Origin: an uncultured Acidimicrobiales bacterium
Lineage (GTDB): Bacteria > Actinomycetota > Acidimicrobiia > Acidimicrobiales > JANYDT01
Assembly: GCA_963763885.1 (NCBI GenBank)
Contig: CAVXQD010000003.1
Coordinates: 140,085-204,084 of the forward strand
Direction: 5' to 3'
DNA length: 64,000 nt
Below the pieces are notes generated by a model, which was not told the DNA's origin, did not search any database, and was given only the letters and a program-made list of their open reading frames with translations. This document shows, one piece after another, positions 4,773 through 48,495 of this stretch (position 1 is its first letter; each line of letters opens with the position of its first letter). A program made the position numbers and the translations under genes.

Positions 4773-4853
4773 GTCGGTTCGTTTGTCAGAGGGCTGGCTG
4801 TCACATCGGTTCGTTTGTCAGAGGAGTTGGCTGTCACATGGTTGGCTGTCACA
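4773..4853. repeat. tandem direct repeats (2 x ~33 bp plus a 15-bp partial unit)
   Basis: tcggttcgtttgtcagagg[gc/agt]tggctgtcaca at 4773-4805 and 4806-4838, then tggttggctgtcaca at 4839-4853. The motif GGCTGTCACA occurs three times. Confidence 0.85.
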
Positions 4854-4875
4854 GGGGTTGGTGCACGATGCGCAC

Positions 4876-7758: not shown

Positions 7759-7915
7759 GGGTTCTCCTGACATGAGCTGCCGAGCGATTCGTCGGCTCTT
7801 GGGTGGCACTGTAACCAAGGTCACACTCGCCATTGCACTCGGGCGTGACCCGCCTTGTCGCTGCGGCAAAGTCGGGTCCCGCCAGACGTCTCAACGCCGG
7901 TACGATGTAGCCCTT

Positions 7916-10735: not shown

Positions 10736-10768
10736 GCGAAACCCACCAACCACACCGGATCCATTGCC

Positions 10769-11884
10769 ATGTTGAGAGATCATGCTGACGCGCTCGTTGC
10801 CGAACGAGCGCGCCTGCGCGAAGCCGAAAACTATTTAGGCTTCGACCGACTCAAGACAGAGTTTGTGCGGCTCGAGACAGAACTGGCCCGACCAGACCTG
10901 TGGGATGACCCCGAGATCGGCCGCAAGGTTGGCGCGCAGTACGCAACCGTGAAGGACGATCTCGAGTCGCTCACCGGTGTGGCCCGTCACCTCGACGACG
11001 CTGACACGCTCCTGGAGCTTGGCACAGAGATGGAAGACGAGTCCCTCGAGCCCGAGCTGCTGGAACATGTTGCAGCGGCTCGCAAGGTGCTGGAAGAACT
11101 CGAGCTGCGCAGCTTGTTTACGGGTGAGTACGACGAGGGCGACGCTATCTTCGAAATCCACTCCGGCGCAGGGGGCGTCGATGCGCAGGACTGGGCCGAA
11201 ATGCTGCTGCGTATGTATGTGCGCTGGGGAGAGCGGCGCGGCTTCGAAGTTGAAATCGAGTCCGTTGCCGAGGGTGCCGAAGCCGGCATCACAACTGCCA
11301 TTCTCATCGTTAAAGGTAGGTACGCATACGGTCTGTTGTCGGCCGAACGTGGTGTGCACCGCCTCGTTCGTATCTCGCCATTCGATCAGCAAGCGCGCAG
11401 ACAAACGTCGTTCGCCGGCGTGTCGCTCACGCCGGTCATCGAGGACGCCACGTCCAAGGTGAACATCGATGAAAAAGACCTCCGCGTCGACGTGTTCCGA
11501 TCATCTGGCGCTGGTGGTCAGCACGTCAACACAACGGACTCGGCCGTTCGTATGACCCACATCCCCACGGGCATCGTTGTCAGCTGCCAGATCGAGCGCA
11601 GCCAGATTCAGAACCGTGCACGGGCGATGGACATGTTGGCGGCGAAACTTATCGAGCGTCAGCGTCAAGAGCGAGACCAGATGATGGCAGACATCACTGG
11701 CCCTCAGAAGGAAGCTGCGTGGGGCAACCAGATCCGCTCCTACGTGCTTGCGCCGTACCAAATGGTCAAGGACCTCCGCACCGAGCACGAGGTTGGTACA
11801 CCTGCCGACGTGCTCGACGGTGACATCGACGGGTTCATTGAATCGTGGCTGCGATGGCGTCGAGCCAACGAGCCCGCGGCGTGA
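10769..11884 (+). CDS. prfB: peptide chain release factor 2
   Basis: RF2-specific SPF motif (RISPFDQQARRQTSFAGV) and GGQ motif (SGAGGQHVNTTDSAVRMTHIPTGIVV). A single uninterrupted 371-codon frame. Confidence 0.93.
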   Translation: MLRDHADALVAERARLREAENYLGFDRLKTEFVRLETELARPDLWDDPEIGRKVGAQYATVKDDLESLTGVARHLDDADTLLELGTEMEDESLEPELLEHVAAARKVLEELELRSLFTGEYDEGDAIFEIHSGAGGVDAQDWAEMLLRMYVRWGERRGFEVEIESVAEGAEAGITTAILIVKGRYAYGLLSAERGVHRLVRISPFDQQARRQTSFAGVSLTPVIEDATSKVNIDEKDLRVDVFRSSGAGGQHVNTTDSAVRMTHIPTGIVVSCQIERSQIQNRARAMDMLAAKLIERQRQERDQMMADITGPQKEAAWGNQIRSYVLAPYQMVKDLRTEHEVGTPADVLDGDIDGFIESWLRWRRANEPAA

Positions 11885-11958
11885 GGGTGCGCCTGTTCGT
11901 GAACGGTCCGAACTAGGGTGCGTGGCGGCGTTCGGCCCACAATGACTAGAGCTTGCCC

Positions 11959-12645
11959 ATGATCCGTCTCGACAACGTCACCAAGGTGTACCGCAACGGT
12001 GCAACGGCTCTCCGTGGAGTGTCCGCCGAAATCGAAAAGGGCGAGTTCGTCTTTCTTGTCGGTTCATCTGGCTCTGGCAAATCGACGTTCATGCGGTTGT
12101 TGCTGCGTGAAGAATTGCCCACAGAGGGCCAGGTTTATGTGGCCGGCAAAAATGTTCCCGAGTTGCCAAAAGGCAAGGTTCCTTACCTTCGCCGCAACAT
12201 CGGTTGCATCTTCCAGGACTTCAAACTGCTGCCCAATAAGACCGTCTACGAAAACGTGTCGTTTGCGCTCGACGTGATCGGCCGTCCGAAGTCGGTTATC
12301 TCGCAGCAGGTTCCGCAGATCTTGGATCTCGTCGGCCTCACCAAGAAGCAAGAAGCTTTCCCCAACGAGCTGTCCGGCGGCGAACAGCAGCGCGTCAGCA
12401 TCGCCCGTGCCTTCATCAACCGGCCGCTCTTGCTGTTGGCCGACGAGCCCACGGGCAACCTCGACCCCAACACGTCAATCGGCATCATGCGACTGCTGGA
12501 GCGCATCAACCGCACCGGCACAACCGTTCTGATGGCTACCCACGATCAGGGCATTGTTGACTCCATGCGTCGCCGGGTGATCGAGCTTGATCGCGGCACG
12601 TTGGTACGTGACCAGGCGCGCGGCGTCTACGGAACCCTGGACTGA
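11959..12645 (+). CDS. ftsE: cell division ATP-binding protein FtsE
   Basis: [11 protein letters not shown]..., Walker [10 protein letters not shown], signature [14 protein letters not shown], Walker [13 protein letters not shown]. Confidence 0.93.
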
Positions 12646-12663
12646 GACGAGCGAGAACTACAG

Positions 12664-13560
12664 ATGGCCGCCCGCCCCACATATCTCATTCGCGAAAGCC
12701 TTTCGAATCTTCGCCGCAATGTGTTGATGACTGTCACCGCGGTCATCACCATCGTGGTGTCGCTCACCATCGTTGGAGCGTCGCTCCTCCTGCGTCAGGG
12801 CATGAACAACTACGCCCGCCAATTCCGCGAGGGCATCGAGCTCAACATCTACATGCAGCCTGCGGCAACGCAGACGCAGCTCGATGCGGTGCGCGCCGAG
12901 CTCGACGATCTGAAGAAATCCGGTCAGGTCACGCGTTACCGCTACGTAGACCAGAAGTCTGCGTTTGAGGAATTCAAAGAGATCTTCCGCAACGACCCGG
13001 AACAGAAAGACCTGTTCCAGAGCGAGAAGGACATGCCTTCCTCGTTCCGAGTTGTGCCTGCCAAAGCAGAACGCATCAGCGCGTTGGGCGATCCGTTCCG
13101 CAATCGCGAGGGCGTGTACCGGGTCGTCAGCGACGAAGACATCAAGGCGCTGTTGCGCATAACAAGGGTTATTCAGTTGGTGTTGCTCTCCGTCGCAATC
13201 GCACTGTTGGTTGCTGCGGTTCTGCTGATCCTCAACACCATCCAGTTGGCAATTTTCAGCCGCCGTCGCGAAGTAGCTGTGATGAAGCTGGTTGGTGGAA
13301 CTAACTGGTTCATCCGCCTTCCGTTCATGTTGGAAGGATTGCTGCAGGGATTCATCGGAGCCGTCATCGCGTTCGCTGCTGTCTACCTGGGTGCTGGCCG
13401 GCTACAGAACGCAATCCGTGAGTCATCCACCACGTTGTTCAAGAGCTTCTCGGTGTCCGGTGCGGAAATCGCTGGCACGGGGATCTTGATGCTGTTGGTG
13501 GGCGCAGCAGTTGGGGCCATTGGGTCCGCCATTGCTGTCAGCCGCTTCCTCGACGTTTAG
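12664..13560 (+). CDS. ftsX: cell division permease FtsX
   Basis: Follows ftsE. N-terminal TM, periplasmic domain, C-terminal FtsX-like permease helices (EVAVMKLVGGTNWFIRLPFMLEGLLQG). Confidence 0.9.
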   Translation: MAARPTYLIRESLSNLRRNVLMTVTAVITIVVSLTIVGASLLLRQGMNNYARQFREGIELNIYMQPAATQTQLDAVRAELDDLKKSGQVTRYRYVDQKSAFEEFKEIFRNDPEQKDLFQSEKDMPSSFRVVPAKAERISALGDPFRNREGVYRVVSDEDIKALLRITRVIQLVLLSVAIALLVAAVLLILNTIQLAIFSRRREVAVMKLVGGTNWFIRLPFMLEGLLQGFIGAVIAFAAVYLGAGRLQNAIRESSTTLFKSFSVSGAEIAGTGILMLLVGAAVGAIGSAIAVSRFLDV

Positions 13561-28580: not shown

Positions 28581-28930
28581 GGGGGTGCCTGGTTTCGACC
28601 TTGGTAGTCAACGCAGGTGAAGCGAGCCGTGGTCTCCGGATCCACGTAAAAGAGTCGGAAAACAAACACAAACGCCAACGACAACGTTGCGCTCGCAGCC
28701 TAAATAACTGCGATGTCGGTCTGGCCCCGGTTCCTCGGGCCAGCCGCCGGCACTATCTAGAGGGACTTACTCAGACGCAGTGCTCATGGGCGGCTGAGGA
28801 CATTAAGTGAGCTGGGGCCCTCCGGAGTTGCCGGTGTCGAGGGAGGACCCGAGATCTCTCCACCGGCTGCGCTCGGAGAAGCCCTGCTGCGAAGCTGAGG
28901 GACGGGGGTTCGATTCCCCCCACCTCCACC
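28581..28930 (+). ncRNA. ssrA: transfer-messenger RNA (tmRNA)
   Basis: 5' GGGGGUGCCUGGUUUCGAC pairs with 3' CACCUCC-A-CC, including a G3:U pair. T-arm GGGGGUUCGAUUCCCCC. Internal tag frame ends ...GCC AAC GAC AAC GTT GCG CTC GCA GCC TAA (..ANDNVALAA*, 28674-28703). Confidence 0.9.
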
Positions 28931-28932
28931 GT
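28906..28932 (+). repeat. att core copy 1 (authentic tmRNA T-arm/acceptor 3' end)
   Basis: gggttcgattccccccacctccaccgt; identical 27-mer at 31137-31163, and 24/24 at 38642-38665. Confidence 0.9.
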
Positions 28933-28977
28933 GTTTTGAAGCATTTCCCCTGGTCAGAGAGGGTGTGGTTCTCTGGT

Positions 28978-29040
28978 CAGGGCGTCAGAGGGCGCATTTA
29001 GGGCGTGCCAACGTGTGGAACGACGCCCTTTGCACGCCCT
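28978..29040. repeat. cluster of AGGGCG(T/C)(G/C) motifs at the left end of island 1 (3 direct, 2 inverted)
   Basis: cagggcgtc 28978, agagggcgc 28987, tagggcgtgc 29000; inverted acgccct 29022, cacgccct 29033. Confidence 0.7.
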
Positions 29041-29103
29041 TGGCGGCGATGCCAACTGTTGAATGAGGGCCTGACCTGGCTGAACTCCACTTCGATCCCA
29101 GAC

Positions 29104-29127
29104 GGGACGGGGGAATCGCACCCCCGG
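29104..29127 (+). repeat. degenerate tmRNA T-arm-like remnant
   Basis: gggacgggggaatcgcacccccgg versus tmRNA gggacgggggttcgattccccccac. Forms GGGGG-N7-CCCCC. Confidence 0.55.
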
Positions 29128-29311
29128 CCCTCAGGTTGGTTGCCGAACGTAGCCAGACACACGACGCCTCGCTCCACGTGGCCAATTCCGCAGACGGAAC
29201 TCTGGTGTTTCACGCCTGCTCAAGCGAGAGCGGTTTCGAGGCGCTGAATTCGCCACCCCGTTCGGGACATGATCAGCGCCCCTCTGGTCGAGGGGGTGCG
29301 GACGTGAGCGG

Positions 29312-30238
29312 CTACAGCAGCTGCCGGAGTTCCTTGACCCGGTCACAGCAGTCGTCGAACGTCGAGCGAGGAGCGCCCGGCCAGACGAGATTCCGCAGAA
29401 CGACCGATTCATACGCATATCGAGCGACTGTGCTCGTTGCCGGATCCCAGGCAGGACTCTGTGCGAAACCTCCTGGGGGACGGTCTGCCGTTGGCATCCC
29501 GGCAGCGCGAGAGTGCTGACAGACCTCGCGAGCGAGCACGTCGACCGGCAGATCGCTGAGCTGTGCGACCACGGTATCGTCACGCAGTAGCCGGTCGATG
29601 TCGTAGTAGTGCCGCGCTGTCACTTCTTTGCGGACGTCATCGCCTTCGCTGGCAGCGTGATGCAGCAACACGAGTTTGTCGACGAGCGTGCGGACTGGAT
29701 CGAGAACAAGAATGCTGACGGGTGTTGCCTCGTCGAAATCGATCGGCAGTTCAACGGATTCCGCGTGCTCGACGATCAGCGACTGCACTGCGAGACGGCG
29801 CTGCGGCAGAGCACCACCCCTGGTACCGATCTCGATGAGGACGCCTGGACGAAGCACGCCAGGCGCCTTGGTGGTCGGGTAGTGCACGATTGCGGTTCGC
29901 TTTTCGCCCTTGGTTGTCGACGAACCATCGACGATCGGTTCAATTCCCGTGGCAGCGGCTGCGCCGGCCATGAACTCCTTCAACGTAGCGTCACGGGATC
30001 CCTTGCCGCCGGCGGGCAGCACAGCTATCAGGTCAACGTCCTCGGAGAATCGTTGAATGAGTCGATGCGCCTTCGACAGACTTGTCCCGCCCTTGAACAC
30101 AATCGAGCAACCGACATTGCGAGATGCGGTAGCAACGCCACGCAACACCTCGGTCACCCAAAAGTCCTTCTCGATGTGGTCAGCCGGAATCCCAGTGAAC
30201 GCCGCTACGCGGCGAAACGTAGACCTCGAACTCGTCAA
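29312..30238 (-). CDS. abiEii: AbiEii/AbiGii nucleotidyltransferase toxin (DUF1814), island 1
   Basis: 308 aa; ...HIEKDFWVTEVLRGVA...SIVFKGGTSLSKAHRLIQRFSEDVDLI... Confidence 0.85.
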   Translation of the reverse strand: MTSSRSTFRRVAAFTGIPADHIEKDFWVTEVLRGVATASRNVGCSIVFKGGTSLSKAHRLIQRFSEDVDLIAVLPAGGKGSRDATLKEFMAGAAAATGIEPIVDGSSTTKGEKRTAIVHYPTTKAPGVLRPGVLIEIGTRGGALPQRRLAVQSLIVEHAESVELPIDFDEATPVSILVLDPVRTLVDKLVLLHHAASEGDDVRKEVTARHYYDIDRLLRDDTVVAQLSDLPVDVLAREVCQHSRAAGMPTADRPPGGFAQSPAWDPATSTVARYAYESVVLRNLVWPGAPRSTFDDCCDRVKELRQLL

Positions 30239-30259
30239 GATCGTCGCGCAAAAGACGGC

Positions 30260-30868
30260 TCACGAGACCGCCCCTTTCTGCAACTGGTCGGCTAGTTCAG
30301 CCCATCGTTCTCGGGTTGCCACATGGTGCTCGCAAGCGACCGACGATGCGATGGTGTTGAGGCGTACCTCTCCGGCGGCGGCGAGTCGGGCGATCGTGGA
30401 CGCCAGTTCGTTCCATGGCTTCTCGATAGATGCTGGACCGCTACGGAGCACTTCGAGTATGGCAACCTCGACCGGCGACAAACCAGCGATTCGGCGCTCG
30501 ATCGACCGAGACACGAAACGAGCCCCTTCTGCCGGAGTCGGAGCGCGACCAGGAACGGCGACGACAGCGACGGACGGCACCTGCGTAGTCAGGCCCAACG
30601 AATGCGCCGCCGACAGCTCAGCCAACCCAGCACCCCGCCCTGCAACCTCCAATGCAACATCAGCGGCCCGCGGCGATGCCATCCCGAACCTCGTCTTAGG
30701 ACCCTTCCAGTACAAACCTTTGCGAACCCGTATTACTCCACCATCAGCTGCGAGCCGAGACAACGCGCATTCAACCGCTCGACGAGAGCCCGGCATGTCG
30801 CCCACCGCGATGAAGGCGCGGAGCGGCGCCAAAGCAACACGCTCACGAACTATCTCAGCCGTACTCAT
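30260..30868 (-). CDS. abiEi: AbiEi-family antitoxin / transcriptional regulator, island 1
   Basis: 202 aa, directly upstream of abiEii on the same strand. wHTH-like ...RAVECALSRLAADGGVIRVRKGLYWKG... and ...AAHSLGLTTQVPS... Confidence 0.8.
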   Translation of the reverse strand: MSTAEIVRERVALAPLRAFIAVGDMPGSRRAVECALSRLAADGGVIRVRKGLYWKGPKTRFGMASPRAADVALEVAGRGAGLAELSAAHSLGLTTQVPSVAVVAVPGRAPTPAEGARFVSRSIERRIAGLSPVEVAILEVLRSGPASIEKPWNELASTIARLAAAGEVRLNTIASSVACEHHVATRERWAELADQLQKGAVS

Positions 30869-30990
30869 GAGAGGAAACTGTATCTATTTTCTCTCAAGAG
30901 GTCAAACGACGCCTTTCGCCGGCGATGCGTAGGACCAACGAAAAGCGTCACGGTTGGCGTTCGTCGACCACGACCGACGAGCAGCAATCA

Positions 30991-31030
30991 GAGGGCGTGG
31001 CCAGGGCGTGAGGGCGCACGGAGGGCGTGC
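30991..31030 (+). repeat. four tandem 10-bp repeats at the right end of island 1
   Basis: gagggcgtgg ccagggcgtg agggcgcacg gagggcgtgc. Same core motif as the left-end cluster, with a period of 10 bp (helical phasing). Confidence 0.8.
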
Positions 31031-31136
31031 TTCTCCGGCCTTCAGCGGCCGTGAAAGGTCCTCAACGGCACGACGAAAATGCCCTCTGAGCTGCACCAAC
31101 AGGTTTCTGGCCAGGCAGAACAGAATCGACGCAAGA

Positions 31137-31163
31137 GGGTTCGATTCCCCCCACCTCCACCGT
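31137..31163 (+). repeat. att core copy 2 (island 1 / island 2 junction)
   Basis: 27/27 identity to the tmRNA 3' end. No matching 5' acceptor strand upstream, so it is not a gene. Confidence 0.9.
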
Positions 31164-31165
31164 TT

Positions 31166-31187
31166 GCCCTGGTCAGGGCATGTTTTT
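31166..31187 (+). terminator. displaced tmRNA-type terminator hairpin plus T-run
   Basis: gccctggtcagggc followed by atgttttt. The same hairpin follows att copy 3 at 38671-38692. Confidence 0.55.
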
Positions 31188-31194
31188 ACATGTC

Positions 31195-31212
31195 TTGACA
31201 CGGGTTTGACAC
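31195..31212 (+). repeat. paired TTGACAC motifs (left end of island 2); third copy at 31306-31312
   Basis: ttgacac ggg t ttgacac, 11-bp period. Confidence 0.7.
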
Positions 31213-31374
31213 ATCGCGACAGCGCGGCGACGTTGGATGTTCAGATCCTGGTGCCGGTGACCTGCGCAAATGCTCATCGCCGTGGGCTTCGGGCGTGACG
31301 CACGCTTGACACACCACGACAACGCCCGGTGAAACCAGATGCGGCTGTGGTGCTGAGCCTCCACGCAAGAAAGA

Positions 31375-31393
31375 GGGTCCGATTCCCCCCACC
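31375..31393 (+). repeat. degenerate T-arm-like remnant
   Basis: gggtccgattccccccacc; homologous to 38858-38881 together with the following ..cg[g/a]aattcgc.. flank. Confidence 0.55.
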
Positions 31394-31480
31394 CCGGAAT
31401 TCGCCGAAATCGGCGGAAATGTGCCGGCCAATTTGGCGAGGTTGACGTTGCTGACGACCACGTTCAAGCATGATTGCTGA

Positions 31481-34400
31481 ATGAACGGAGCGCGTGAAGG
31501 GAGCGGAACAAAGCCTGAAGTGGGCACGGTGACGGTGATGTTCACTGACTTGGCGGGGAGTACGGCGATGCGGGCCCGTTTGGGGGAGGAGGCGGCCGAC
31601 GGGCTCCGGGGTGTGCACGACGCGATCCTCGCCGACGCCATCACAACCAACGGCGGACGCGTCGTGAAGCATCTCGGCGACGGATTCATGGCGGCGTTCC
31701 CGAGCGCGGCCGGAGCCGTTGGCGCGGCCGTGGCGTTGCAGCAGGAGATCGATCGGGCCAATCGTCGTGGCGCGACCGAGGCCATGCGGGTTCGTGTTGG
31801 TATCTCGACCGGTGACGTGACCTTCGAAGGCGGCGACTGCTTCGGACTCCCGGTCGTGGAGGCTCAGCGTCTCGAAGCCTCAGCGGAGCCGGGCACGATC
31901 CGATGCGCCGAGATGGTCAAGCTGTTGGCCCGCGGCCGCGGCGGACACGAGTTCGTCTCGCTCGGCGAGCTCGAATTGAAAGGCCTCGCCGAGCCGCTGC
32001 CCGTCTGTGAAATCAGGTGGACACCGCTCGACGACGAAGTCGCGTCGGCGAACGTCGAAGCAGGCCTGCCGCCGGTCTTCGCTCACGCCGGCGGTCTCCC
32101 GTTCTGCGGACGGGCCGAGGTGTTCGATCACCTCGTAGATGCCTGGAAACTATGCGCTGCCGGCGGGTTCGAGACGGTCCTGCTCGCCGGCGAGCCGGGG
32201 ATCGGCAAGACCCGTCTCGCCCAGGAACTCGCGTCACTCGTGCACGGCGGTGCCGGACTCGTGCTCGCCGGTCGGTGCGACGAAGACGTCACCGTGCCAT
32301 TCCAAGCCTTGGGCGCCGCGCTCGATTGGCAGATGAAGCAGACCGCTGCCGACGCCCGCCTCGCCGCACTCGGCGAACATGGCGGTGATCTCGTCCGTCT
32401 CGTGCCTGACCTCGCGAATCGCATTGTCGGCCTCCCTTCCGCGCTCGAAGCCGACGCCGACACCGAGCGCTACCGCCTCTTCCAAGCCGTCCAATCATGG
32501 CTGTCGATCGGCGGCGTTGAGCATCCCCGACTGTTGGTGATCGACGACCTCCACTGGGCCGACAAACCGACCCTGCTGCTCCTCAAGCACCTCATCGCCA
32601 ACCCCGTCGCCGGGCTCATGGTGCTTTGCACCTACCGCGACACCGACGTCGACCGCTCCCACCCTCTGTCGTCGATGCTCGCCGACTTCCGTCGCATGCC
32701 CGCAGTGACCCGCATCGCCGTGGCTGGCCTCGCCGACGACGGTGTGCGTGACCTCCTCGTGCGCATGGGCGGCCACGACCTCGACTCGGCCGGTCTGGAG
32801 TTCGCCGCGCTCGTGCACCGTGAGACGTCAGGCAACCCGTTCTTCGTCGGTGAAGTCCTCCGCCACCTCGCCGAGACCGGCGCGCTCGTCGAACAAGCCG
32901 GGCGGTGGACGAGTTCGCTGCGTCCGGAAGAAGCCGGAATCCCCGAAGGCATCCGTGAAGTCGTCGGCCGACGCCTCAGCCGACTCGGCGAAGACGTCGA
33001 ACAAGTCCTGCGCGCCGCAGCCGTCATCGGCTACGAGTTCGACGTCGACCTCCTCGCGGACGTCATTGGCCGCACCGCCGACGAGGTACTCGACGCGCTC
33101 GACACGGCGCGTGCGGCGAGTCTCGTGATCGAGGTCGGTGTCGACCGGCACCGCTTCGCCCACGCGCTCGTTCGCGAGACCTTGCATGGCGAGTTGTCGG
33201 CCAGCCGACGAGCCCGTCAACACCGGAAGGTCGCCGAGGCTCTCGAAGCACGTCACGCCGGTGATCTCAACACGGTGGTCGCCGACCTTGCCACTCACTG
33301 GGCCGAAGCGTCAGCGGGCGGCGATCCGGGCCGCGCCATCGAGCTCGCCACCCGAGCCGGCGCACAAGCCAATGAACGCGGCGCGTGGGAGAACGCCATC
33401 CGCTGGTACCAGAGCGCGCTCGAACTCATGGAAGATCAGCGCGCATACGATGTTGAACGTCGCCACACGCTCGTCGCGCTTGCCCAGGCCCAGGCCGACG
33501 CCGGAGCGGTCGCCGACGCCCGCGACAACGTCGTCCAAGCGGCTCGGTTGGCCCTCGATGCGGGTGACATCGACACCGCATGCGCCGCTCTCACGGTCAA
33601 GACGCGGGCGAGCTGGGCAGCGAGCGATCCCGCCGACACGGAGAAAGTTGTGCTCCTTCGCGCGGCGTTGGCCACGCCGACGCTCACCGATCCGCAACGC
33701 GCAGACCTGCTGAGCCAACTGGCAACCGAGATGATGTTCGAGGCCGATATCCCGGGCCGGCGTGCAGCAGTCGAGGAGTTCATGAGCGTGCTCCCCGCCG
33801 TCGATGCGCATGTCCACGCACGACTGCTCACGAACGTCGGCGCGTTCGGCGGAGTCCCGTTGCGAAGCAGTCTGGAGTCGCTGGACGCACTGATGGAACT
33901 TGCGCTCGCGGTTGCCCGCCCGGATCAGCGGTTCTGGTTACGTAGCAATCGCTTCTGGATGAACCTGCAACTCGGTCGACGCGATGTCCTCGACGAGTCG
34001 CTCGCTCTTTCCGAGCGACTCGTCGCGAGCGCTCCGAGCCGCGTGCAATGGGTCCCAGCGAACATGGCCACCATGGTCTATGTCCTCGACGGCGACCTCG
34101 CCAGGGCCGACGACGCAGTCGCGGAGATGAGTCGGCTCCTCGAGGGATGGGCCGTGCCAGAGGCTGCGAACTATCGGACGACCACTGGCGTGTCGATCGC
34201 CCGTGAGCGTCGAACTCTCAGCGATCTGTTGTGGCTTGCCGAGGTGATGGAGCAGATGGGCCCGCCGACAAGCGCGGCTCGAACCCTCGCCGCCTTCATC
34301 CGCCTCGCATCAGGTGATGCGGCCGCTGCCGCCGCGGCACTCGGCCTGGTCCGAGTCGACGAGATTGTCGAGGACAACGCCTATGGCGCCGTTGTCGCTC

Positions 34401-34792
34401 TGTGGGGCGAGACGGCCGTCAACGTCGGAACAGACCACCAGTGCAGAGCGCTGGAGGCGGTTCTCGAACCCCTGGCCGACGTACATCTCCTGACCGGCGG
34501 GTTGTACTGCGGCGCGGCAGATCGCGTACGAGGACTCCTGCTCGATCGTCTCGGCGAACACGAGCACGCCGACTCATTGTTCGCCGACGCGGTCCGCCAG
34601 CACGAGGGCCTTCGCTCGCCCACGTGGGTCGCCCGCACCCAGCTCGACTGGACCGATTCGCTCCTGCGCCGCCTCCAGCCTGACCTCGCGCGTACCCACC
34701 TCGACGCCGCCGCCACGGTCCTCGGCGGCCTCGACCTCCCTGACAACCAACTCCGCCTCGCGGAACTCCGCTCCCGGCTCGCTGCCGACTGA
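31481..34792 (+). CDS. class III nucleotide cyclase domain - STAND/AAA P-loop NTPase - TPR-like repeat protein (no C-terminal HTH)
   Basis: 1103 aa. Cyclase: VTVMFTDLAGSTAMRARLGEE...VKHLGDGFMAAF...RVRVGISTGDVTFEGGDCFGLPVVEAQRLEA. NTPase: Walker A LLAGEPGIGKTRL, Walker B RLLVIDDLHWADKPT. About 650 aa of helical repeats follow. Ends ...LRLAELRSRLAAD. Confidence 0.85.
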   Translation: MNGAREGSGTKPEVGTVTVMFTDLAGSTAMRARLGEEAADGLRGVHDAILADAITTNGGRVVKHLGDGFMAAFPSAAGAVGAAVALQQEIDRANRRGATEAMRVRVGISTGDVTFEGGDCFGLPVVEAQRLEASAEPGTIRCAEMVKLLARGRGGHEFVSLGELELKGLAEPLPVCEIRWTPLDDEVASANVEAGLPPVFAHAGGLPFCGRAEVFDHLVDAWKLCAAGGFETVLLAGEPGIGKTRLAQELASLVHGGAGLVLAGRCDEDVTVPFQALGAALDWQMKQTAADARLAALGEHGGDLVRLVPDLANRIVGLPSALEADADTERYRLFQAVQSWLSIGGVEHPRLLVIDDLHWADKPTLLLLKHLIANPVAGLMVLCTYRDTDVDRSHPLSSMLADFRRMPAVTRIAVAGLADDGVRDLLVRMGGHDLDSAGLEFAALVHRETSGNPFFVGEVLRHLAETGALVEQAGRWTSSLRPEEAGIPEGIREVVGRRLSRLGEDVEQVLRAAAVIGYEFDVDLLADVIGRTADEVLDALDTARAASLVIEVGVDRHRFAHALVRETLHGELSASRRARQHRKVAEALEARHAGDLNTVVADLATHWAEASAGGDPGRAIELATRAGAQANERGAWENAIRWYQSALELMEDQRAYDVERRHTLVALAQAQADAGAVADARDNVVQAARLALDAGDIDTACAALTVKTRASWAASDPADTEKVVLLRAALATPTLTDPQRADLLSQLATEMMFEADIPGRRAAVEEFMSVLPAVDAHVHARLLTNVGAFGGVPLRSSLESLDALMELALAVARPDQRFWLRSNRFWMNLQLGRRDVLDESLALSERLVASAPSRVQWVPANMATMVYVLDGDLARADDAVAEMSRLLEGWAVPEAANYRTTTGVSIARERRTLSDLLWLAEVMEQMGPPTSAARTLAAFIRLASGDAAAAAAALGLVRVDEIVEDNAYGAVVALWGETAVNVGTDHQCRALEAVLEPLADVHLLTGGLYCGAADRVRGLLLDRLGEHEHADSLFADAVRQHEGLRSPTWVARTQLDWTDSLLRRLQPDLARTHLDAAATVLGGLDLPDNQLRLAELRSRLAAD

Positions 34793-34925
34793 CCCCTGTA
34801 GAACTAAATAGTGCTCGAATAAGACGCGCACTGACTTCGACGCGTGGTGGGAGCCGGATGAGAACCGTCCGCGGACATCGCGGGAGGCGCTCTGAAATTC
34901 TTCGACGTTCCCAATCTGTGGATAT

Positions 34926-34956
34926 TTGACAGTTTAGTCACACGTATGCAAACTGT
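34926..34956 (+). promoter_or_regulatory. candidate promoter/operator of the abiEi-2 operon
   Basis: AT-rich spacer. TTGACA at 34926-34931. Inverted repeat acagttt (34929-34935) / aaactgt (34950-34956). ctgtgga occurs twice. Confidence 0.35.
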
Positions 34957-34973
34957 GGAAGAATCACATATTG

Positions 34974-35759
34974 ATGACACGTGCAGACTTCTCCGCGTTG
35001 TGGGATCAGTTGCTGTCCGAGGGCGTGAACACTGTCACGATCGACGAGGTCGAGTCGCGAACGGGAGCAACCCGCAACGCGGTGTACCTCGGCGTCAAGT
35101 ATGCGATGGACCGCAAACGGCTGTTCTCGCCCGCGCGCGGCTTCTACGTGATCGTGCCGCCCGAGTACCGGGCGGCTGGTGTGGTGCCAGCGACCCACTT
35201 CATCGACCCGATGATGAACCATCTCGGCATCGAGTACTACCTCGGTCTCGCGACCGCTGCAGGCTGGTGGGGATCGTCGCACCACGCGTCACAAGAATTC
35301 CAAGTCATCGCGAACGGACGACTACCGGACCGGACTATCGGCAAGGTGCGACTGCGCTTCATCAGCCGGGCCAGGCTCGACGACAAGGCAATTCGTCGTG
35401 TCGCAGGGCCACGAACGATGCTCAACGTGTCGACTCCCGACCTCACGGCCGTTGACCTCGCCGCCGACCCCGCGCATGTTGGCGGACTGTCCAATGTCGC
35501 GACCATCCTCGCCGAGCTCCCGGACCTCGACGGCCACGGCATCGCCACTCTTGCGAAACATCGCACCCGAGCTGACGCTCGACGTCTCGGTTGGCTCCTG
35601 TCACTCGTTCGCAACGACCTAAACCTACGTGCACTTATGAAAGTCGCTGACCCGCACCATGGACAGCCGACACTCATGGCATCGAACAAGCCACGAACCG
35701 GCCAGGTCGACAATGACTGGAACGTGCTCGTGAACACGAACGTCGAAGCCGACCTGTGA
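34974..35759 (+). CDS. abiEi: AbiEi-family antitoxin, island 2 (copy 2)
   Basis: MTRADFSALWDQLLSEG...ARGFYVIVPPEYRAAGVVPATHFIDPMMNHLGIEYYLGL...GGLSNVATILAEL.... Paralog of 37081..37893. Confidence 0.85.
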   Translation: MTRADFSALWDQLLSEGVNTVTIDEVESRTGATRNAVYLGVKYAMDRKRLFSPARGFYVIVPPEYRAAGVVPATHFIDPMMNHLGIEYYLGLATAAGWWGSSHHASQEFQVIANGRLPDRTIGKVRLRFISRARLDDKAIRRVAGPRTMLNVSTPDLTAVDLAADPAHVGGLSNVATILAELPDLDGHGIATLAKHRTRADARRLGWLLSLVRNDLNLRALMKVADPHHGQPTLMASNKPRTGQVDNDWNVLVNTNVEADL

Positions 35760-36204
35760 TCTCTCCGAACGCCCTTACCGCCTGGAGAACGACGCACCCC
35801 TGGGCCGACGACGAGCAGGTCGAACAAGACCTGATCATGACGCGAGTCGCGATCGAAATCGCCAACGATCCGCATCTCGGCAACGTCTTGGCGTGGCGCG
35901 GCGGAACATGTCTGCACAAACTGTTCGTCCCGTCGGCTGCAGGTACAGCGAAGACCTCGACCACATCGCATACGGCCTGTCGGTCAAGAACAACGACATG
36001 CGCCAGCTCTGCGCTGCCTCCTCGGCACTCATGAGCCTGACCGTGCTGACTCGCTCCGCGCGGAGGAGATCGAAAGACTCCCGCAATGTGGCCCGGCCAT
36101 GGCCAGCCTTGGCACAAACGTCGTCGTGTGGCTCGCCGTGTCCGTCGTCGGCCAGCGCCCGCTCGTCGACCAGGTGCGGAACCGATCGCGCCGCCACAGA
36201 CTGA
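35756..36204 (+). pseudogene. abiEii: AbiEii toxin remnant (frameshifted and truncated)
   Basis: GTGA overlap with abiEi. The N-terminus ...EQDLIMTRVAIEIANDPHLGNVLAWRGGTCLHKLFVP loses frame near 35940. RYSEDLDH continues in another frame, then similarity is lost. Runs into the 3' end of the convergent abiEii. The 3' limit is approximate. Confidence 0.6.
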
Positions 36205-36285
36205 GCCAGCTTCGTCGGGAGAAGAACCGCTCCGTCTGCACGGCAGTCGCCGCCTGCCCCAAGCACTGGATCGACGCTTCCGCCG

Positions 36286-37084
36286 TCACGGAGTCGCGCC
36301 GTCGAGCGCTTCGATCGCTTCGAGCACGGCCCGGGCGGCGACCGCGCCACTGTTGATCTGGTAGCCCGCAGGCCATTGGGCGACGAGCAGTTCGAGATCT
36401 GTGGTGAACGTCGCATCTTGCAGCTTCGCGGTGAGGTTGTCGTGGGCGCGGGTGATCGTCCATCCGGCTGGTCGGTACGGGCTGAAGCACTGGGCGATAG
36501 CGGCTGGTGTGACGCCTGCGTGTTCGACGGGCAAGCCAGAGGTCGAACAAGTCGCGTCCTTTGCTGCGTTGGAACAACGCGCGGATCTTGGTGGCGGTAA
36601 GTTCTTCGATCGTAAAGGTCGCCACGTCGGCTGAGCCGGTGAACCACGGGCTATCGACTGCGAATAAGCGCGTGACGGTTGGCTGGGCAGGTGAACGTTC
36701 GAAGGTGTTCATTTCCACTTTGATCTGCAAGCGTTGGCCGCTGAGGAATGTGGAGCGCAGTCGGGCTTTGGGGTGTCGGCCGATCTCGGCGCGGACGTCA
36801 TCGAAACCAACGAAGCGTGCGACGTCGCGGATTGCGTCGAGCACGTCGCCGACACCACCTTCGCTGCGCCGGACGTAATCGAGGTCTTCGCTGTACCGCC
36901 ACGGCCGATCGAGCCACAGTTTATGAAAGCACGTACCTCCGCGGAAGACGAGATCGCTGCCGAGGAGCGGGTGGTTGGCGAACTCGATGATCAACCGCGA
37001 CAGCACGAGGTCTTGTTCAACGTTCTCGGGGCTGGTCCACGGGACCTGTGTGCGCCAGTGGGCGATGTCGGCTTGGGTGATCAC
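36286..37084 (-). pseudogene. abiEii: AbiEii toxin with a single frameshift in a C3/G3 run
   Basis: MITQADIAHWRTQVPWTSPENVEQDLVLSRLIIEFANHPLLGSDLVFRGGTCFHKLWLDRPWRYSEDLDYV...RDLFDLWLA then shifts. The family-like tail VEHAGVTPAAIAQCFSPYRPAGW...EALDGATP* is in the -1 frame (ORF 36286..36534). The extra base lies in ggg 36529-36531. Confidence 0.75.
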
Positions 37085-37893
37085 AGGTCGTGCTCGATTC
37101 GGGTGTTGATCTGGACTCGCCAGCGGTCATCCCGGTCGATCGATGGCGGCCGACCGGTGGCCAGCGGCGTCACATCGGCTTGGTCGACAAGCTGTGCGAG
37201 TCCGTCGAGATCAATCGTGGTGCCGGTCTCATTCGCCATGAACTCGATCAGATGGCCGGCGCGTTGCACGGCGGCAACCGGCCGCAACCTGGCTGCGTCG
37301 ACCAGAGCTTGCGGAACGAGGCGGCCCTCGACGAGAAGGTCACCAATCACGGTGGCGACGTTGGATAGCCCTCCACCGGCACGGGGAAAGCTGACGAGAT
37401 CGAACACCGTCGCAACAGCGGCCGACACGGTGACTCGTCCGGTTGGGACATTGGTTTGTTCGCACTGCGTTTCTTCGGTGTTGGATCGTTGGATGAACTG
37501 GATGCGACCGCCACCGATCTGCCGGTCGCGTAACCGGGCCGGCGTTACGACTTGGAGGACCATCGCCGCTTGATGCGACGCACCGTGGATTGCTGCGGCG
37601 GAGAGGAACCCGACATAGTACGGGTGGCCGAGGTGGCGCATCATGGGGTCGATGAAGTGGATCGGCGGCGGCGCGCCAGCGGCACGGTATTCAGGCGGGA
37701 CCGGCACCCACGCGCCTTTGGTGACCGAAATGAGTTTCCCGGCCTCCCGGGCGCGTTGCAGGCTGTTCGACACCACGTCCGTGCCAATGCCGAGGAGCGC
37801 GGCAACCTCGGCAGTCTCGATGTAATGACGACCGCGGCTCATCAGCCAGTCCGCCAGTTCGCTCGGAGTGATCGTGGCCGTTCTCACCGGCAC
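37081..37893 (-). CDS. abiEi: AbiEi-family antitoxin, island 2 (copy 3)
   Basis: 270 aa; ...KGAWVPVPPEYRAAGAPPPIHFIDPMMRHLGHPYYVGFLSAAAIHG...GGLSNVATVIGDL.... GTGA overlap with the downstream abiEii. Confidence 0.85.
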   Translation of the reverse strand: MPVRTATITPSELADWLMSRGRHYIETAEVAALLGIGTDVVSNSLQRAREAGKLISVTKGAWVPVPPEYRAAGAPPPIHFIDPMMRHLGHPYYVGFLSAAAIHGASHQAAMVLQVVTPARLRDRQIGGGRIQFIQRSNTEETQCEQTNVPTGRVTVSAAVATVFDLVSFPRAGGGLSNVATVIGDLLVEGRLVPQALVDAARLRPVAAVQRAGHLIEFMANETGTTIDLDGLAQLVDQADVTPLATGRPPSIDRDDRWRVQINTRIEHDL

Positions 37894-38495: not shown

Positions 38496-38532
38496 TTGAC
38501 ACAGTTTTGACACGGTGACACGCGTTTGACGC
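38496..38532 (+). repeat. four phased TTGACAC-type motifs at the right end of island 2
   Basis: ttgacac 38496, ttgacac 38507, gtgacac 38515, ttgacgc 38526 (spacing 8-11 bp). Confidence 0.75.
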
Positions 38533-38641
38533 AGTTCTCCAGCTTCCAGGGGACTCGAAAGGCATCGACGGGAACGACCAGAAACATGCTCTGACCAGGT
38601 GAAACACCCGCTGAGCAGCGAAAAGGCAAACGAGAACATGC

Positions 38642-38665
38642 GGGTTCGATTCCCCCCACCTCCAC
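38642..38665 (+). repeat. att core copy 3 (island 2 / island 3 junction)
   Basis: gggttcgattccccccacctccac, 24/24 identity to the tmRNA 3' end. The following ~50 nt are homologous to 31164-31216. Confidence 0.9.
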
Positions 38666-38670
38666 TATTT

Positions 38671-38692
38671 GCCCTGGTCAGGGCATGCTTTT
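38671..38692 (+). terminator. second copy of the tmRNA-type terminator hairpin
   Basis: gccctggtcagggc followed by atgctttt. Confidence 0.5.
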
Positions 38693-38698
38693 CATGCC

Positions 38699-38796
38699 TT
38701 GACACGGGTTTTGACACAGTGTGAAAAGGGTGCGCGCCCGAGGAAGTGCCCATGACCTGCGGCAATGCCGGGTGGGCGCTGACACGGTTTTGACAC
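38699..38796 (+). repeat. two pairs of TTGACAC motifs (left end of island 3)
   Basis: ttgacac 38699 and 38711; ctgacac 38779 and ttgacac 38790. Confidence 0.7.
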
Positions 38797-38857
38797 GGCG
38801 CTGCATTGTCACCCTCGCCGGTACTGAGCCCGCTAGCTGCGCTTTCTGTTCTGATTC

Positions 38858-38881
38858 GGGGGGTCACATTCCCCCCACCTC
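38858..38881 (+). repeat. degenerate T-arm-like remnant (perfect GGGGGG-N7-CCCCCC hairpin)
   Basis: ggggggtcacattccccccacctc. Confidence 0.55.
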
Positions 38882-39324
38882 GAAATTCGCTGCAATTAGC
38901 CGGAATGAGCCGGAATTCGCCGACTATCTGGCTAAGGGCCGGCCTGAACGAGGTGATCAAACGGCCTTCGGACTTCGAGGGTTCTACACCGCTGCTAACG
39001 AGGCGAAGGCTGCCTCGGGCGGGTTGCCGACAAACCTCACACCCACGCTGTGGGCCTTCGCGAACTGCGCGACCGAAAGCCAAAAGCGTTCGATCAGTAC
39101 TCGAGACCCAAGGCTTGGGCTTCGCGAGTCATCTCGTCGGCGATCTCGCGGCGTAGCGCCTCGTTCTTCGATCGAAACGTGTGGACGTCGGTGCGACATG
39201 ACGGTTCTGTGATGCTGCCACCAGCCGGAAAACTGATCCGTCAAGGGTAGATCGACCGCCGAGTTGTATTTGCTCTGGACAACTAGGTAGCGAGTCGGTA
39301 CCAGTTCGGTAGTAGCGTGTGGTC

Positions 39325-39555
39325 ATGTCGATCCAGATCGCGTTGCGGCTCCCCGATGACGTGGTCAAGTACATCGATGCCGAGGTGGCCGCCGGAAGGG
39401 CTAAGAGTCGTTCCGATGTCGTCGCTCGTTTTGTAGAACGAGACCGTCGACGGATACGGGCAGCCGAAGACGTCGAGCGTCTCCTCGCCGACCGCACGTC
39501 GGACTTCGATGATCTCGCCTTGGCAGCAGTGGCGACGAAGCTCGACATCGACTGA
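39325..39555 (+). CDS. ribbon-helix-helix antitoxin (MazE/CopG-like)
   Basis: MSIQIALRLPDDVVKYIDAEVAAGRAKSRSDVVARFVERD...; stop overlaps the mazF start (TGATG). Confidence 0.75.
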   Translation: MSIQIALRLPDDVVKYIDAEVAAGRAKSRSDVVARFVERDRRRIRAAEDVERLLADRTSDFDDLALAAVATKLDID

Positions 39556-39854
39556 TGCGGCCGATCCACATAGCGCAACTCGACAAGCCCCGCCCTGTCC
39601 TCATCCTGACGCGAGACCTCGCACGCGTGGTGCTCACGAACGTGACCGTTGCACCGATCACGACTCGCGCACGCGGGCTCGCCGTCGAGGTGCCGGTCGG
39701 CGTGCGCAATGGCCTTGGCGAAGCATCGGTCGTGAGCTGCGACAACGTGCAGACCATTCCGGCGACGGCGCTCGGACGCCTCGTCGGATACCTGTTCGAC
39801 GACGAAGAGCCCCTCCTGACGGAGGCCATCCTCGCTGCGTTCGACCTCACGTAA
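39555..39854 (+). CDS. mazF: MazF/PemK-family endoribonuclease toxin
   Basis: 99 aa; RPIHIAQLDKPRPVLILTRD...VTVAPITTRARGLAVEVPVG...SVVSCDNVQTIP. Confidence 0.85.
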   Translation: MRPIHIAQLDKPRPVLILTRDLARVVLTNVTVAPITTRARGLAVEVPVGVRNGLGEASVVSCDNVQTIPATALGRLVGYLFDDEEPLLTEAILAAFDLT

Positions 39855-39974
39855 CCCGCTGCCAACGGCTAGGCCGATTACACGGCGGCTCGGTCACTGG
39901 CCGAGGAGTAGCCCTCCGGACAGCGGCGGCGGTTTACTGCTCGACGTTGTTCGGTTCGATGGCTTCGGGAGGCG

Positions 39975-41144
39975 TTGCAGATAACCGAGGTTCCCGATGT
40001 TCGACGCGCCGATCTTTTGTCTGCGTTGGCCACCGAGCTGATCTTCGAAAACGACGTCCCGGGCCGGAAACGAGCCGTGGACGCGCTCTGGGAGATCTTT
40101 CCTTCGTTGCCTCCCGAGGACTGCGCCCGACTACTGCAGAACGTCGCTGCGTTCGGCATGGTCTTCTCAATGGACCGGCTCGACCTCATCTGCCTTCACC
40201 TGGACCGTGCGGTGCAGGTCGCTAAAGCGGATCAGCTGCGCATGTTGCAGATGAACCGATTCATGCGGCATCTCCAACGGGGCAACCGTGATCAGGTCGA
40301 CGAAGCCTTTCATGCCGCTGAGCAGCTGATGGCGAAACAGACAGGCCGTTGGCAATGGCTCCCGCACATGCTTGCGACGATCCGCTGTGTTGTGGACGGG
40401 GACCTCGCTGCCGCAGCAGGGGCCCGGAAGGTCGCGTCGGGACTACTGCGTACGCTGGATGTTCCGGAGGCGGAGAACTACAGCGTCACGATGCCAATCA
40501 TGATCGGTCGCGAACAGCGATCGCTCGGAACGCTGCTCCGCTATGCCGAGGCGATGGAGACGGTGGGGTCAGCTTCCGGTCCGCCTCGGGCACTCGCTGC
40601 ATTCATCCGGTTTGCGTCCGGCGATCTGGAATCCCCTCGCCGCGCATTGGACCTCGTCCGCGTAGAGGAGTTCGCCGACGATGCCGGCCATGCCGTCGTC
40701 GTCGCGCTGTGGAGCGAGATGGCCAGCACGCTCGGATCCGACGCACAACGGCGTGCCTTCATGGAGGCCCTGGAGATGGAAGCTGGCGTACACCTACTTG
40801 CCGGCGGGATCTACCTCGGCGCTGCGGATCGCCTGCGCGCGCTGCTACTCGATCGCCTCGGCGAGCACGAGCAGGCCGACACGCTGTTCGGAAACGCAGT
40901 CCGCCAGCATGAAGACCTCCGCTCGCCCACCTGGGTCGCGCGCACCCAACTCGACTGGGCCGAGGCGCTCCTGCGCCGAAGTTCGATGGCTGAGGCGCGG
41001 GCCCACCTTGAAGCCGCCGCTGGAGCGCTCGGCGACCTCGACCTCCCCGACAACCAGCTCCGCCTCGCTGAACTCCGAGCGGGGTCAGCAAAACCCGGTG
41101 TAGCCGCTTGTGACCTCGGTTCCATAGACTCCAGTCATGAGTGA
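39975..41144 (+). pseudogene. 5'-truncated paralog of the cyclase-STAND-TPR gene (C-terminal repeat region only)
   Basis: 389 codons, colinear with residues ~715-1103 of 31481..34792 (ADLLSALATELIFENDVPGRKRAV vs ADLLSQLATEMMFEADIPGRRAAV; LRSPTWVARTQLDW and DLPDNQLRLAELR shared). No cyclase or P-loop part. Only a TTG start is available. Confidence 0.7.
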
Positions 41145-41688
41145 CGCTGCCGTTGCCCCGATGGACGAAGAAGAGTTCGTCGCGTTCGAACTCGCCAGCC
41201 CCGAACGCCACGAATTCGTCGACGGCGTGATCCGGGCTATGACCGGGGCGTCGATCCGCCACAACGACGTCGCCCTGAACTTGGCGATGGCCTTGCGTGC
41301 CGCGGCGAAGGGCACCCGGTGCAAGGTGAACATCGAGGGGGTGCGCCTCAAGGTCAACAGCCGCCGGCATTACTACCCCGACGTGATGGTCAGCTGTGAG
41401 GAGCCCAACGACACCCACTCCCAATCGGCCCCGTGCCTTATCGCCGAGGTCCTCTCGCCCACCACCTCGTCGATCGACCGTGGTGAGAAGCGCATTTCGT
41501 ACATGGCGTTGCCATCGCTCCGTCACCTTTTGCTCATCGACCTCGAGGCCGGCAACATCGAGCATCAGTGGCGCGCCAACAGCGACGACGCCTGGTTCTT
41601 CGAAATCGGCATCCCCGGCGCCACGCTCCACCTGACGTGTCCGCAAGCGGCATTAATCAGCGTGGACGACATCCTCGTCGAAGCCTGA
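41137..41688 (+). CDS. Uma2-family (DUF820) restriction-endonuclease-fold protein
   Basis: 183 aa; ERHEFVDGVIRAM...HNDVALNL...YYPDVMVSCE...PCLIAEVLSPTTSSIDRGEKRISYMALPSLRHLLLID. 8-nt overlap with the preceding ORF. Confidence 0.85.
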   Translation: MSDAAVAPMDEEEFVAFELASPERHEFVDGVIRAMTGASIRHNDVALNLAMALRAAAKGTRCKVNIEGVRLKVNSRRHYYPDVMVSCEEPNDTHSQSAPCLIAEVLSPTTSSIDRGEKRISYMALPSLRHLLLIDLEAGNIEHQWRANSDDAWFFEIGIPGATLHLTCPQAALISVDDILVEA

Positions 41689-48156: not shown

Positions 48157-48495
48157 GGAACCAAGGTACCTCCAGACAGCCGCTCGGTGAACCCGTGCCT
48201 GAACGCGTACCTAGAACGTTGATCCCTCGCTTCCAGCGCTGCGTTACAAGCGGGGCTGCGGTTTGGCCGGAGCGTCAGCGCTGGTGGTCCCGATTCAGAA
48301 GACGTCGGCCAGGTCTGACCGTGTCGGAAACAAGCGGGTCTGCCGGGACCATGGCTCCCGTGTTTTACGGGTGTCTGGGTCTTGTTGTGGTTGCAGCGTG
48401 TTGTGGCTGGTCACAGGGTTGTTTGTGGGGGAGATGGGGTGATCACTGGTTGTGATCACGAACACCAGTTCGATCAGTCGGTGTATACTTTCTGT

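Follow-up and report, generated by a model that had tools for sequence, protein, structure and literature searches.

A 64,000-nucleotide stretch of DNA from an uncultured Acidimicrobiales bacterium (contig CAVXQD010000003.1, positions 140,085 to 204,084, hereafter the window and numbered from its first letter) carries an intact transfer-messenger RNA (tmRNA, ssrA) gene that is followed by a tandem array of small genomic islands. The island ends are marked by short repeated words, AGGGCG and TGAC(A/G)C. The favored reading is that two specificity variants of a tmRNA-targeting integrase family used these words as arm-type sites, which are preserved on decayed ssrA islands that resemble cis-mobilizable elements (CIMEs); its probability is put at roughly 0.72. 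The reading is based on the position of the words at fixed distances from the attachment (att) core in both arms, where the two versions are colinear, on their conservation like footprints while the spacers drift, and on integrase-bearing relatives that show the same AGGGCG array, scaffold, and core downstream of the integrase gene (int). The anatomy of the ends, the conservation pattern, the link between AGGGCG array and integrase in relatives, and the lack of int in the window are direct observations. They support the original prediction, in which element-specific repeats located at the ends next to att cores were taken for integrase arm-type sites.

The cores derive from the 3′ end of the tmRNA gene (GGTTCGATTCCCCCCACC...), which is repeated downstream of the gene in four direct copies. 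Two of them are perfect (31138, within 31136-31162, and 38643, within 38641-38666) and two are degenerate (31376, within 31375-31397, and 38862, within 38861-38881). Such a set of perfect and degenerate copies is the signature of successive insertions into the ssrA 3′ end. The cores split the region into four units, namely island 1, islet A, island 2, and islet B (Table 1). As in islands defined by the Islander approach, an intact target gene is accompanied by a displaced 3′ fragment that forms a direct repeat at the far end. T-run hairpins at 31165-31180 and 38670-38685 lie directly 3′ of the perfect core copies and look like terminators supplied by the elements for the restored tmRNA gene.

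The left arm of island 1 harbors AGGGCG on the plus strand at 28979, 28989, and 29000 (spacing 10 and 11 bp) and on the minus strand at 29024 and 29035. Its right arm opens with four words and continues with a scaffold of ~110 bp (TTCTCCGG, GAAAGG, CTGAgCtG, CTGgCCAG) that leads into the perfect core. In the right arm of island 2, TTGACAC at 38496 and 38507, gTGACAC at 38515, and TTGACGC at 38526 are spaced about 11, 8, and 11 bp, and the scaffold holds CTGACCAG at 38591. Islet A contains TTGACAC at 31195, 31206, and 31306 together with TGACGC at 31296, and islet B contains TTGACAC at 38699, 38711, and 38790 together with cTGACAC at 38779. The AGGGCG words at both ends of island 1 and the TTGACAC words, pairs, and four-site array of island 2 and the islets had all been located by the original prediction. 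Two of its details need correction. The right array of island 1 had been described as four decamers of perfect period; its spacing is 11, 8, and 11 bp, and only the mean is 10. In the TTGACAC pair assigned to 38779 and 38790, the second site is exact and the first deviates by one base. The pair at 31296 and 31306 had been overlooked. AGGGCG is the only 6-mer with at least four copies in 45 bp across the 64 kb, and any 6-mer of this kind arises in 3 of 30 Markov simulations, so that the clustering exceeds chance.

Both words are built into one scaffold, in which four sites spaced 11, 8, and 11 bp are followed by ~116 bp and the core. The right arms of islands 1 and 2 share a layout with TTCTCCGG, GAAAGG, and two CTGA(C/G)C(A/T)G motifs between array and core. 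At the left ends, the core is followed by a short hairpin or a GAAG...CAGGTCA block and then by the words at fixed columns. Relative to the core, AGGGCG covers +49 to +105 on one side and -146 to -116 on the other, and TGAC(A/G)C lies at +33/+44 and from -147 to -117. Eight attR and five attL arms have colinear word positions, which take the form characteristic of arm sites, with occurrence in both arms at fixed distances. When the eight attR arms, which come from six genomes, are aligned, the word positions are occupied by AGGGCG in six arms and by TGAC(A/G)C in two. The attL arm of the window aligns column for column with those of the loci L051, L002, L062, and L063, and TGAC(A/G)C substitutes for AGGGCG at identical columns. 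The idea that the ~110-bp scaffold is a foreign tmRNA fragment was discarded; inspection by eye shows a match to the tmRNA of the window in the T-arm only.

A third word, CTGACCAG/CTGGTCAG, had also escaped the first reading. Five of its eight copies in the window lie in att arms, against 2.5 copies expected for the whole window. The word is found at 28950-28980, 31169-31176 (as CTGGTCAG inside the hairpin of islet A), 38591-38598, and 38674-38681, and a variant, TGACCTGCG, at 31258 and 38753. In both word families, and in relatives as well, each of the two arms carries it between array and core, and it may be the site of an accessory protein or an excisionase.

The conservation of the arms singles out the words. 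In five independent AGGGCG-type attR arms, the pairwise identity is 0.97 in the word columns (22 of 24 invariant), compared to 0.53 in the spacers, 0.64 in the scaffold, and 0.30 in the upstream flank. The words are thus conserved like footprints while the spacers drift, and across the five arms they are under stronger constraint than the surrounding noncoding DNA. Comparison with homologous islands elsewhere, which had been proposed as a check, finds the words at the island ends in relatives. L051 and L052, which were collected as homologs of the island 1 antitoxin (97% identical), carry the same island without int. Between the window and L051, island 1 is nearly base-for-base alike, with the int deletion already present in both, and different neighbors surround it. 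In L053 to L057 (antitoxin 78% identical), four copies of AGGGCGCG with the same spacing and scaffold precede a different core, which is followed by a TTGACGC pair. L058 and L059 (AbiEi-like protein 66% identical) contain the gene pair outside of an att context, with no array, scaffold, or core.

For the second word, a scan of the genome collection for the core plus a TTGACAC pair yields only two loci, L002 and L003, both from Acidimicrobiia metagenome-assembled genomes (MAGs) and both without int. MAGs of this class supply the nearest loci, in agreement with the lineage of the window. L003 has the layout of the window minus island 1, with tmRNA, a unit like islet A, cargo, a TGACAC array, scaffold, core, hairpin, and pair. 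The attR arm of island 2 is 80% identical to its L003 counterpart and the tmRNA genes are 77% identical, whereas the cargo is unrelated, with one cyclase domain aligning at 37% amino-acid identity and in opposite orientation. The arms are therefore conserved independently of the DNA that they flank. L002 has two features of its own. Behind a second core copy (~6703) comes a hybrid arm (6700-6830) with one AGGGCG and then a TGACCC/TTGACTC pair. At 2925-2960, two CsoR-type operator-like palindromes (ATACCCCCGGGGGTAG, ATACCCCCAGGGGTAG) stand in place of the word array and adjoin a metal-sensing repressor gene.

The AGGGCG array, scaffold, and core lie 0.2-4 kb downstream of a tyrosine integrase in three metagenome loci, L062, L063, and L064. 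The search for the words beside integrases in relatives, another proposed check, thus connects this array type to an enzyme. In L062, the order is int, AbiEii, AbiEi-like (85% identical to the window protein), four copies of AGGGCGCG, scaffold, and core; the int product is the C-terminus of a tyrosine integrase (PF00589, 9e-29), and its gene adjoins AbiEii on the side away from the array. L063 consists of an HTH_17 gene, an int whose product is 82% identical to that of L062, one gene, five AGGGC(A/G) words, scaffold, and core, with words, scaffold, and core 0.9 kb downstream of int. In L064, int (an 82% homolog) is followed by 4 kb of cargo, four AGGGCG words spaced 11, 8, and 11 bp, the scaffold, and a partial core. 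The more distant L065 (integrase 69% identical) exposes the left part of an element of this kind, with smpB, tmRNA, a hairpin, GACGCG words at 11-bp spacing, cargo, HTH_17, int, and more cargo. In L063, L065, and L066, int comes after an excisionase-like HTH_17 gene.

Sequence and fold of the integrase family match Tn1549 Int best, followed by lambda Int. The alignment to full-length lambda Int covers ~345 columns, versus ~287 for the 75-356 construct that is devoid of the arm-binding domain. In the AlphaFold model of the family member P0121 (mean predicted local distance difference test score 87), a beta-sheet-plus-helix domain (residues 1-59) is followed by a disordered linker and the core-binding and catalytic domains. 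The modeled domain order is that of integrases that bind arm-type sites. The AGGGCG relatives thus encode a candidate cognate integrase, of a family whose model has the extra N-terminal domain; the window has none, and none was found for the TGACAC word within the limited number of look-ups and scans.

Two further integrases in the same loci, L051 6129-7555 next to tRNA-Gly and L064 16865-18202 next to tRNA-Pro, carry separate word sets in the interval from int to the tRNA end and are examples of the arm layout within the lineage. The tRNA-Gly enzyme is flanked by two copies of GTGGCACG, 11 bp apart, and two of ATGGGCAAAA, 12 bp apart, and a search for a second tRNA-Gly fragment in L051 found none. 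The tRNA-Pro enzyme is accompanied by GAGAACA, with three direct and two inverted copies at ~11-bp spacing. The L051 integrase was considered as the cognate enzyme of the neighboring island 1 homolog and rejected, as it sits against tRNA-Gly and has its own words. The 63%-identical integrase P0140 was rejected as well; its element carries a relaxase and has a different end, which is not that of a tmRNA.

The statement that no recombinase is encoded in the window holds. Pfam scans of 68 open reading frames (ORFs) detect none, and tblastn of the window with six integrases of the family gives nothing below E = 0.1. The island ORFs comprise only AbiE pairs and the cyclase-AAA protein, without integration or transfer genes, so that an integrase gene inside the island, as used by Islander, is lacking. 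The loss of int, which had been offered as one explanation, gains direct support from L062 for island 1. Only from 29297 onward, 15 bp from the 3′ end of AbiEii, is the window homologous to L062, and the place of the L062 int is taken by 366 bp of nonhomologous arm and palindrome sequence. As int lies beside the orthologous AbiEii in L062, it is missing from the window, and the sequence comparison indicates that island 1, to which this evidence is confined, derived from an int-bearing element by deletion.

The palindrome-like segment (28892-29137) consists of the tmRNA 3′ end and the AGGGCG arm, followed by their own inverted, diverged copy. Its two inverted AGGGCG words stand at matching offsets. 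In L051 the inverted core copy is kept and the two inverted words are lost. The segment may have originated by inversion or may represent a native arm with three direct and two inverted sites, as seen beside tRNA-Pro in L064.

Combining these features, a mechanism can be proposed. Tyrosine integrases of one family would have repeatedly inserted elements into the tmRNA 3′ end, which would account for the tandem array downstream. AGGGCG and TGAC(A/G)C would be the arm-type sites for two specificity variants, those of the P′ arm (attL) lying +33 to +105 from the core and the four of the P arm (attR) at about -150 to -116. A heterobivalent integrase would place its N-terminal domain on the words and its catalytic domains at the core in the tmRNA T-arm, and this bridging of arm and core would assemble the intasome for integration or, together with the HTH_17 excisionase, for excision. 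Later, the xis-int module would have been deleted, with both arms and the cargo (AbiE pairs, cyclase-STAND protein) being kept. The N-terminal domain of the integrase probably binds the words, and the TGACAC words presumably serve a sister integrase. The islands may still be movable by a cognate integrase supplied in trans or by a neighboring element.

Several observations weigh against the arm-site interpretation. No integrase was found linked to the TGACAC/TTGACGC words, and the TGACAC-type islands seen (window, L003, and L002) are all without int. The attL of the int-bearing AGGGCG elements is out of view because of contig ends or because the elements exceed the fetched flanks. The core copy of L064 is partial, and neither L063 nor L064 has a tmRNA within reach. 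PF26003, the Pfam family for the N-terminal integrase domain, is a precomputed weak match that was not reproduced at E ≤ 0.01. Lastly, the four-site array could be bound by an excisionase or a host factor instead of Int.

This last option would keep the words in recombination, as sites of the HTH_17 excisionase (a recombination directionality factor) or of a host bending protein, and is considered rather unlikely. Xis sites, as in lambda and L5, typically take the form of phased direct repeats in one arm, and the HTH_17 genes that precede int would provide the protein. However, the two arms share the word, the hallmark of arm-type sites of Int, and CTGACCAG/TGACCTGCG between arrays and core is the better candidate for an accessory protein. 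The words might alternatively be operators of the islands' AbiEi-type antitoxins or regulators. AbiEi-type antitoxins autoregulate by binding repeats, the distance from the AGGGCG array to the downstream AbiEi-like start codon is ~120-160 bp in the window, L051, L053, and L062, and island 2 encodes AbiEi_1 proteins too. The repeats do not travel with the abiEi promoter, however. L058 and L059 keep the promoter-proximal sequence without array, scaffold, or core, L063 and L064 have the array without a Pfam-detected AbiE gene in the locus, and the TGACAC array of L003 adjoins a DUF234 ATPase, with no AbiE gene among the annotated ORFs. Moreover, the antitoxin gene has its own promoter-like site ~90 bp from the array, and the words recur beyond the toxin gene at the far end of the island. 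A role as operators is thus very improbable.

The original prediction had also raised promoter arrays as an alternative, given the resemblance of TTGACA to a −35 box; such arrays would drive transcription into the islands or outward from them. TTGACA is the sigma-70 −35 consensus, and the words come after the tmRNA terminator hairpins. A consensus scan detects no −10 hexamer 16-18 bp downstream of any TTGACAC word, GC-rich AGGGCG, which does not resemble a −35 box, takes its place at identical scaffold positions, and four same-strand sites at 8-11 bp, 116 bp from a tRNA-like core, are not a promoter layout. This alternative is dismissed as highly improbable. An equally small chance is given to the repeats being inert relics of vertically inherited dead islands, whose conservation would reflect recent common ancestry of the genomes. 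The near-identity of island 1 and its shared int deletion in the window and L051 fit such an origin, and neither an excision product nor a cognate integrase was observed. Against it, the word columns are invariant while spacers fall to ~50% in arms with different cores and cargo (the core of L053 differs), and the arm shared by the window and L003 surpasses the tmRNA gene in conservation next to unrelated cargo.

Within the arm-site interpretation, islets A and B are cases of extreme decay, in which attL is fused to attR with nothing in between. The composite of islet A, cargo, and attR is common to the window and L003 with different cargo. This composite, like the island 1 common to the window and L051, fits co-mobilization but also turnover of neighbors, and it is only suggestive. 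A more far-reaching proposal is that the integrase-less islands and islets are actively exchanged defense-gene cassettes at ssrA that are moved in trans, with orthogonal arm codes (AGGGCG, TGACAC, and GACGCG on one shared scaffold) choosing the integrase. It is unlikely, and it is kept in view by the word conservation in int-less copies, the composites with different cargo, and the hybrid word-type junctions. If true, such an exchange would work like an integron yet be built from attP arms.

Table 1. Features of the tmRNA gene and of the downstream islands in the window
Feature	Position	Strand	Remarks
tmRNA (ssrA) gene, intact	28581-28930	+	ARAGORN, tag ANDNVALAA; Rfam RF00023, 157.7 bits, full-length
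att core	28905-28930	+	last ~25 nt of tmRNA gene; common to all islands
Island 1	28931-31162		cargo: AbiEii/AbiEi-like toxin-antitoxin pair
Island 1 left arm (attL, P′-type)	28931-29040	+	CTGGTCAG at 28950 and 28973
Inverted, diverged copy of tmRNA 3′ end	29105-29137	-	degenerate core 29105-29122; inverted repeat of 29 nt, 90% complementary; also seen by gapped alignment
AbiEii toxin	29312-30238	-	Pfam PF08843, 7e-29
AbiEi-like antitoxin	30260-30868	-	Pfam DUF6088, weak match
Island 1 right arm (attR, P-type)	30992-31162	+	AGGGCG(T/C)(G/A) at 30992, 31003, 31011, 31022; core 31136-31162
Islet A	31163-31400	+	238 bp, cargo-free; attL arm fused to shortened attR arm; homologous units in L003 and L053
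Island 2	ends 38666		cargo: cyclase-AAA protein, orphan AbiEi, second AbiE pair
Adenylate/guanylate cyclase-AAA/STAND-like protein	31481-34792	+	Pfam
Orphan AbiEi_1	34971-35759	+	Pfam
AbiEii	36029-37084	-	Pfam; paired with AbiEi_1
AbiEi_1	37081-37893	-	paired with AbiEii
Island 2 right arm (attR)	38496-38666	+	perfect core copy 38641-38666
Islet B	38667-38885	+	homologous to islet A; hairpin 38670-38685; TGACCTGCG at 38753; degenerate core 38861-38881

The island 1 AbiE pair has its own promoter-like site at 30905-30877 (promoter scan), and the cargo of island 2 (31481-37893) has a GC content of 0.67 compared to a background of ~0.62. Downstream of islet B, the DNA at 39319-41688 has an island-like look and encodes an RHH antitoxin with a MazF/PemK toxin (39319-39854), a Uma2 endonuclease (41137-41688), and a TPR-like protein. 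It yielded no additional core copy, so that older, fully eroded islands may lie there.

Upstream, a thioesterase gene precedes ssrA. The genes secA, prfB, ftsE, and ftsX are located at 7580-13560, and ssrA follows another 15 kb on. Synteny with smpB was tried as an anchor and abandoned, as neither the ORF that follows ftsX nor either of its two successors encodes SmpB; no SmpB was found among the window ORFs scanned. In L065, unlike in the window, smpB lies immediately upstream of ssrA. Exact-protein look-ups of the thioesterase and AbiEii returned no match, probably through differing start codons. Elsewhere in the window, an intergenic repeat cluster unrelated to the islands (4690-4860) consists of an inverted repeat, CTTCGCGTCCCC/GGGGACGCGAAG, with five CGTCCC/GGGACG copies in 70 bp, and of two or three subsequent direct repeats of CGGTTCGTTTGTCAGAGG...TTGGCTGTCACA. 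A gene for a DUF222 and HNH endonuclease (48382-49704) lies within a strong GC and AT skew (48-49 kb).

A metagenome scan for the hairpin plus TTGACAC gave three chance matches. In viral contigs, the core plus a TTGACAC pair gave nothing, and the core alone gave 44 matches, nearly all on low-GC phage contigs and none with the scaffold; most look like phage tmRNA genes. The AGGGCG array pattern was absent from the viral contigs, the TGACAC array pattern matched two unrelated low-GC phages, and a protein-profile scan retrieved integrases at 24-27% identity only. The IMG/VR low-GC phage loci L082 and L083 have dense intergenic TTGACAC/TGACAC arrays of four or five sites on a different scaffold, which may be operator or iteron arrays.

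The islands provide a natural example of the decay of integrative elements at a tmRNA hotspot with their recombination arms kept. The specificity of the arm sites seems to change by a swap of 6-7-bp words inside a conserved attP scaffold. For annotation, island finders that rely on the integrase miss such islands, and arrays of arm words by tRNA-like core copies can mark them. The islands carry toxin-antitoxin and STAND-type genes, which are typical of defense islands. Candidate orthogonal arm/integrase sets for engineering are available in Acidimicrobiia, where one tmRNA-specific integrase family has variants of word and N-domain in pairs. The current understanding of site-specific recombination is unchanged by these findings.

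The closest known systems are the arm sites of heterobivalent integrases, namely P1, P2, and P′1-3 of lambda Int, the P1-P7 pairs of L5, and those of Tn916/Tn1549 Int. Their arm sites likewise are short words distinct from the core, occur in both arms, often in pairs about one helical turn apart, and lie within ~150 bp of the crossover. These systems also share a separate N-terminal DNA-binding domain of the integrase and an excisionase gene beside int, and lambda Int and Tn1549 Int are the best solved-structure matches of the integrase linked to the words in relatives. The window differs from them by its new words, scaffold, and host lineage (Acidimicrobiia MAGs), by the absence of the integrase itself, and by arm sites that are predicted from sequence.

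At the level of whole elements, the islands compare to CIMEs, which are decayed integrative and conjugative or integrative and mobilizable elements that keep attL and attR without genes for integration and transfer and occur in tandem accretions (PMC5704250). The window islands likewise lie between intact att sites without int, in tandem at one tRNA-like target; the perfect cores at 28905-28930, 31136-31162, and 38641-38666 have word-bearing arms on both sides, and the int-bearing relative L062 shows derivation by deletion. In contrast to the Streptococcus ICESt1-type elements, on which the CIME definition is based and whose mobilization has been demonstrated experimentally, the window islands are known from sequence data, and the islets of ~240 bp are free of cargo. 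Genomic islands specific for ssrA are also known in tandem arrays from Islander/TIGER (PMC4383910) and from Dehalococcoides (PMC3146451). As in the window, they integrate at the tmRNA 3′ end and restore the gene with their own sequence, their ends are recognizable from displaced 3′ fragments, and several islands are stacked at one ssrA. Islander-type calls need an integrase gene inside the island, so that the window islands would be missed or called remnants. Viewed alongside these systems, the loss of the integrase is an ordinary fate for mobile DNA that has inserted next to a tmRNA gene.

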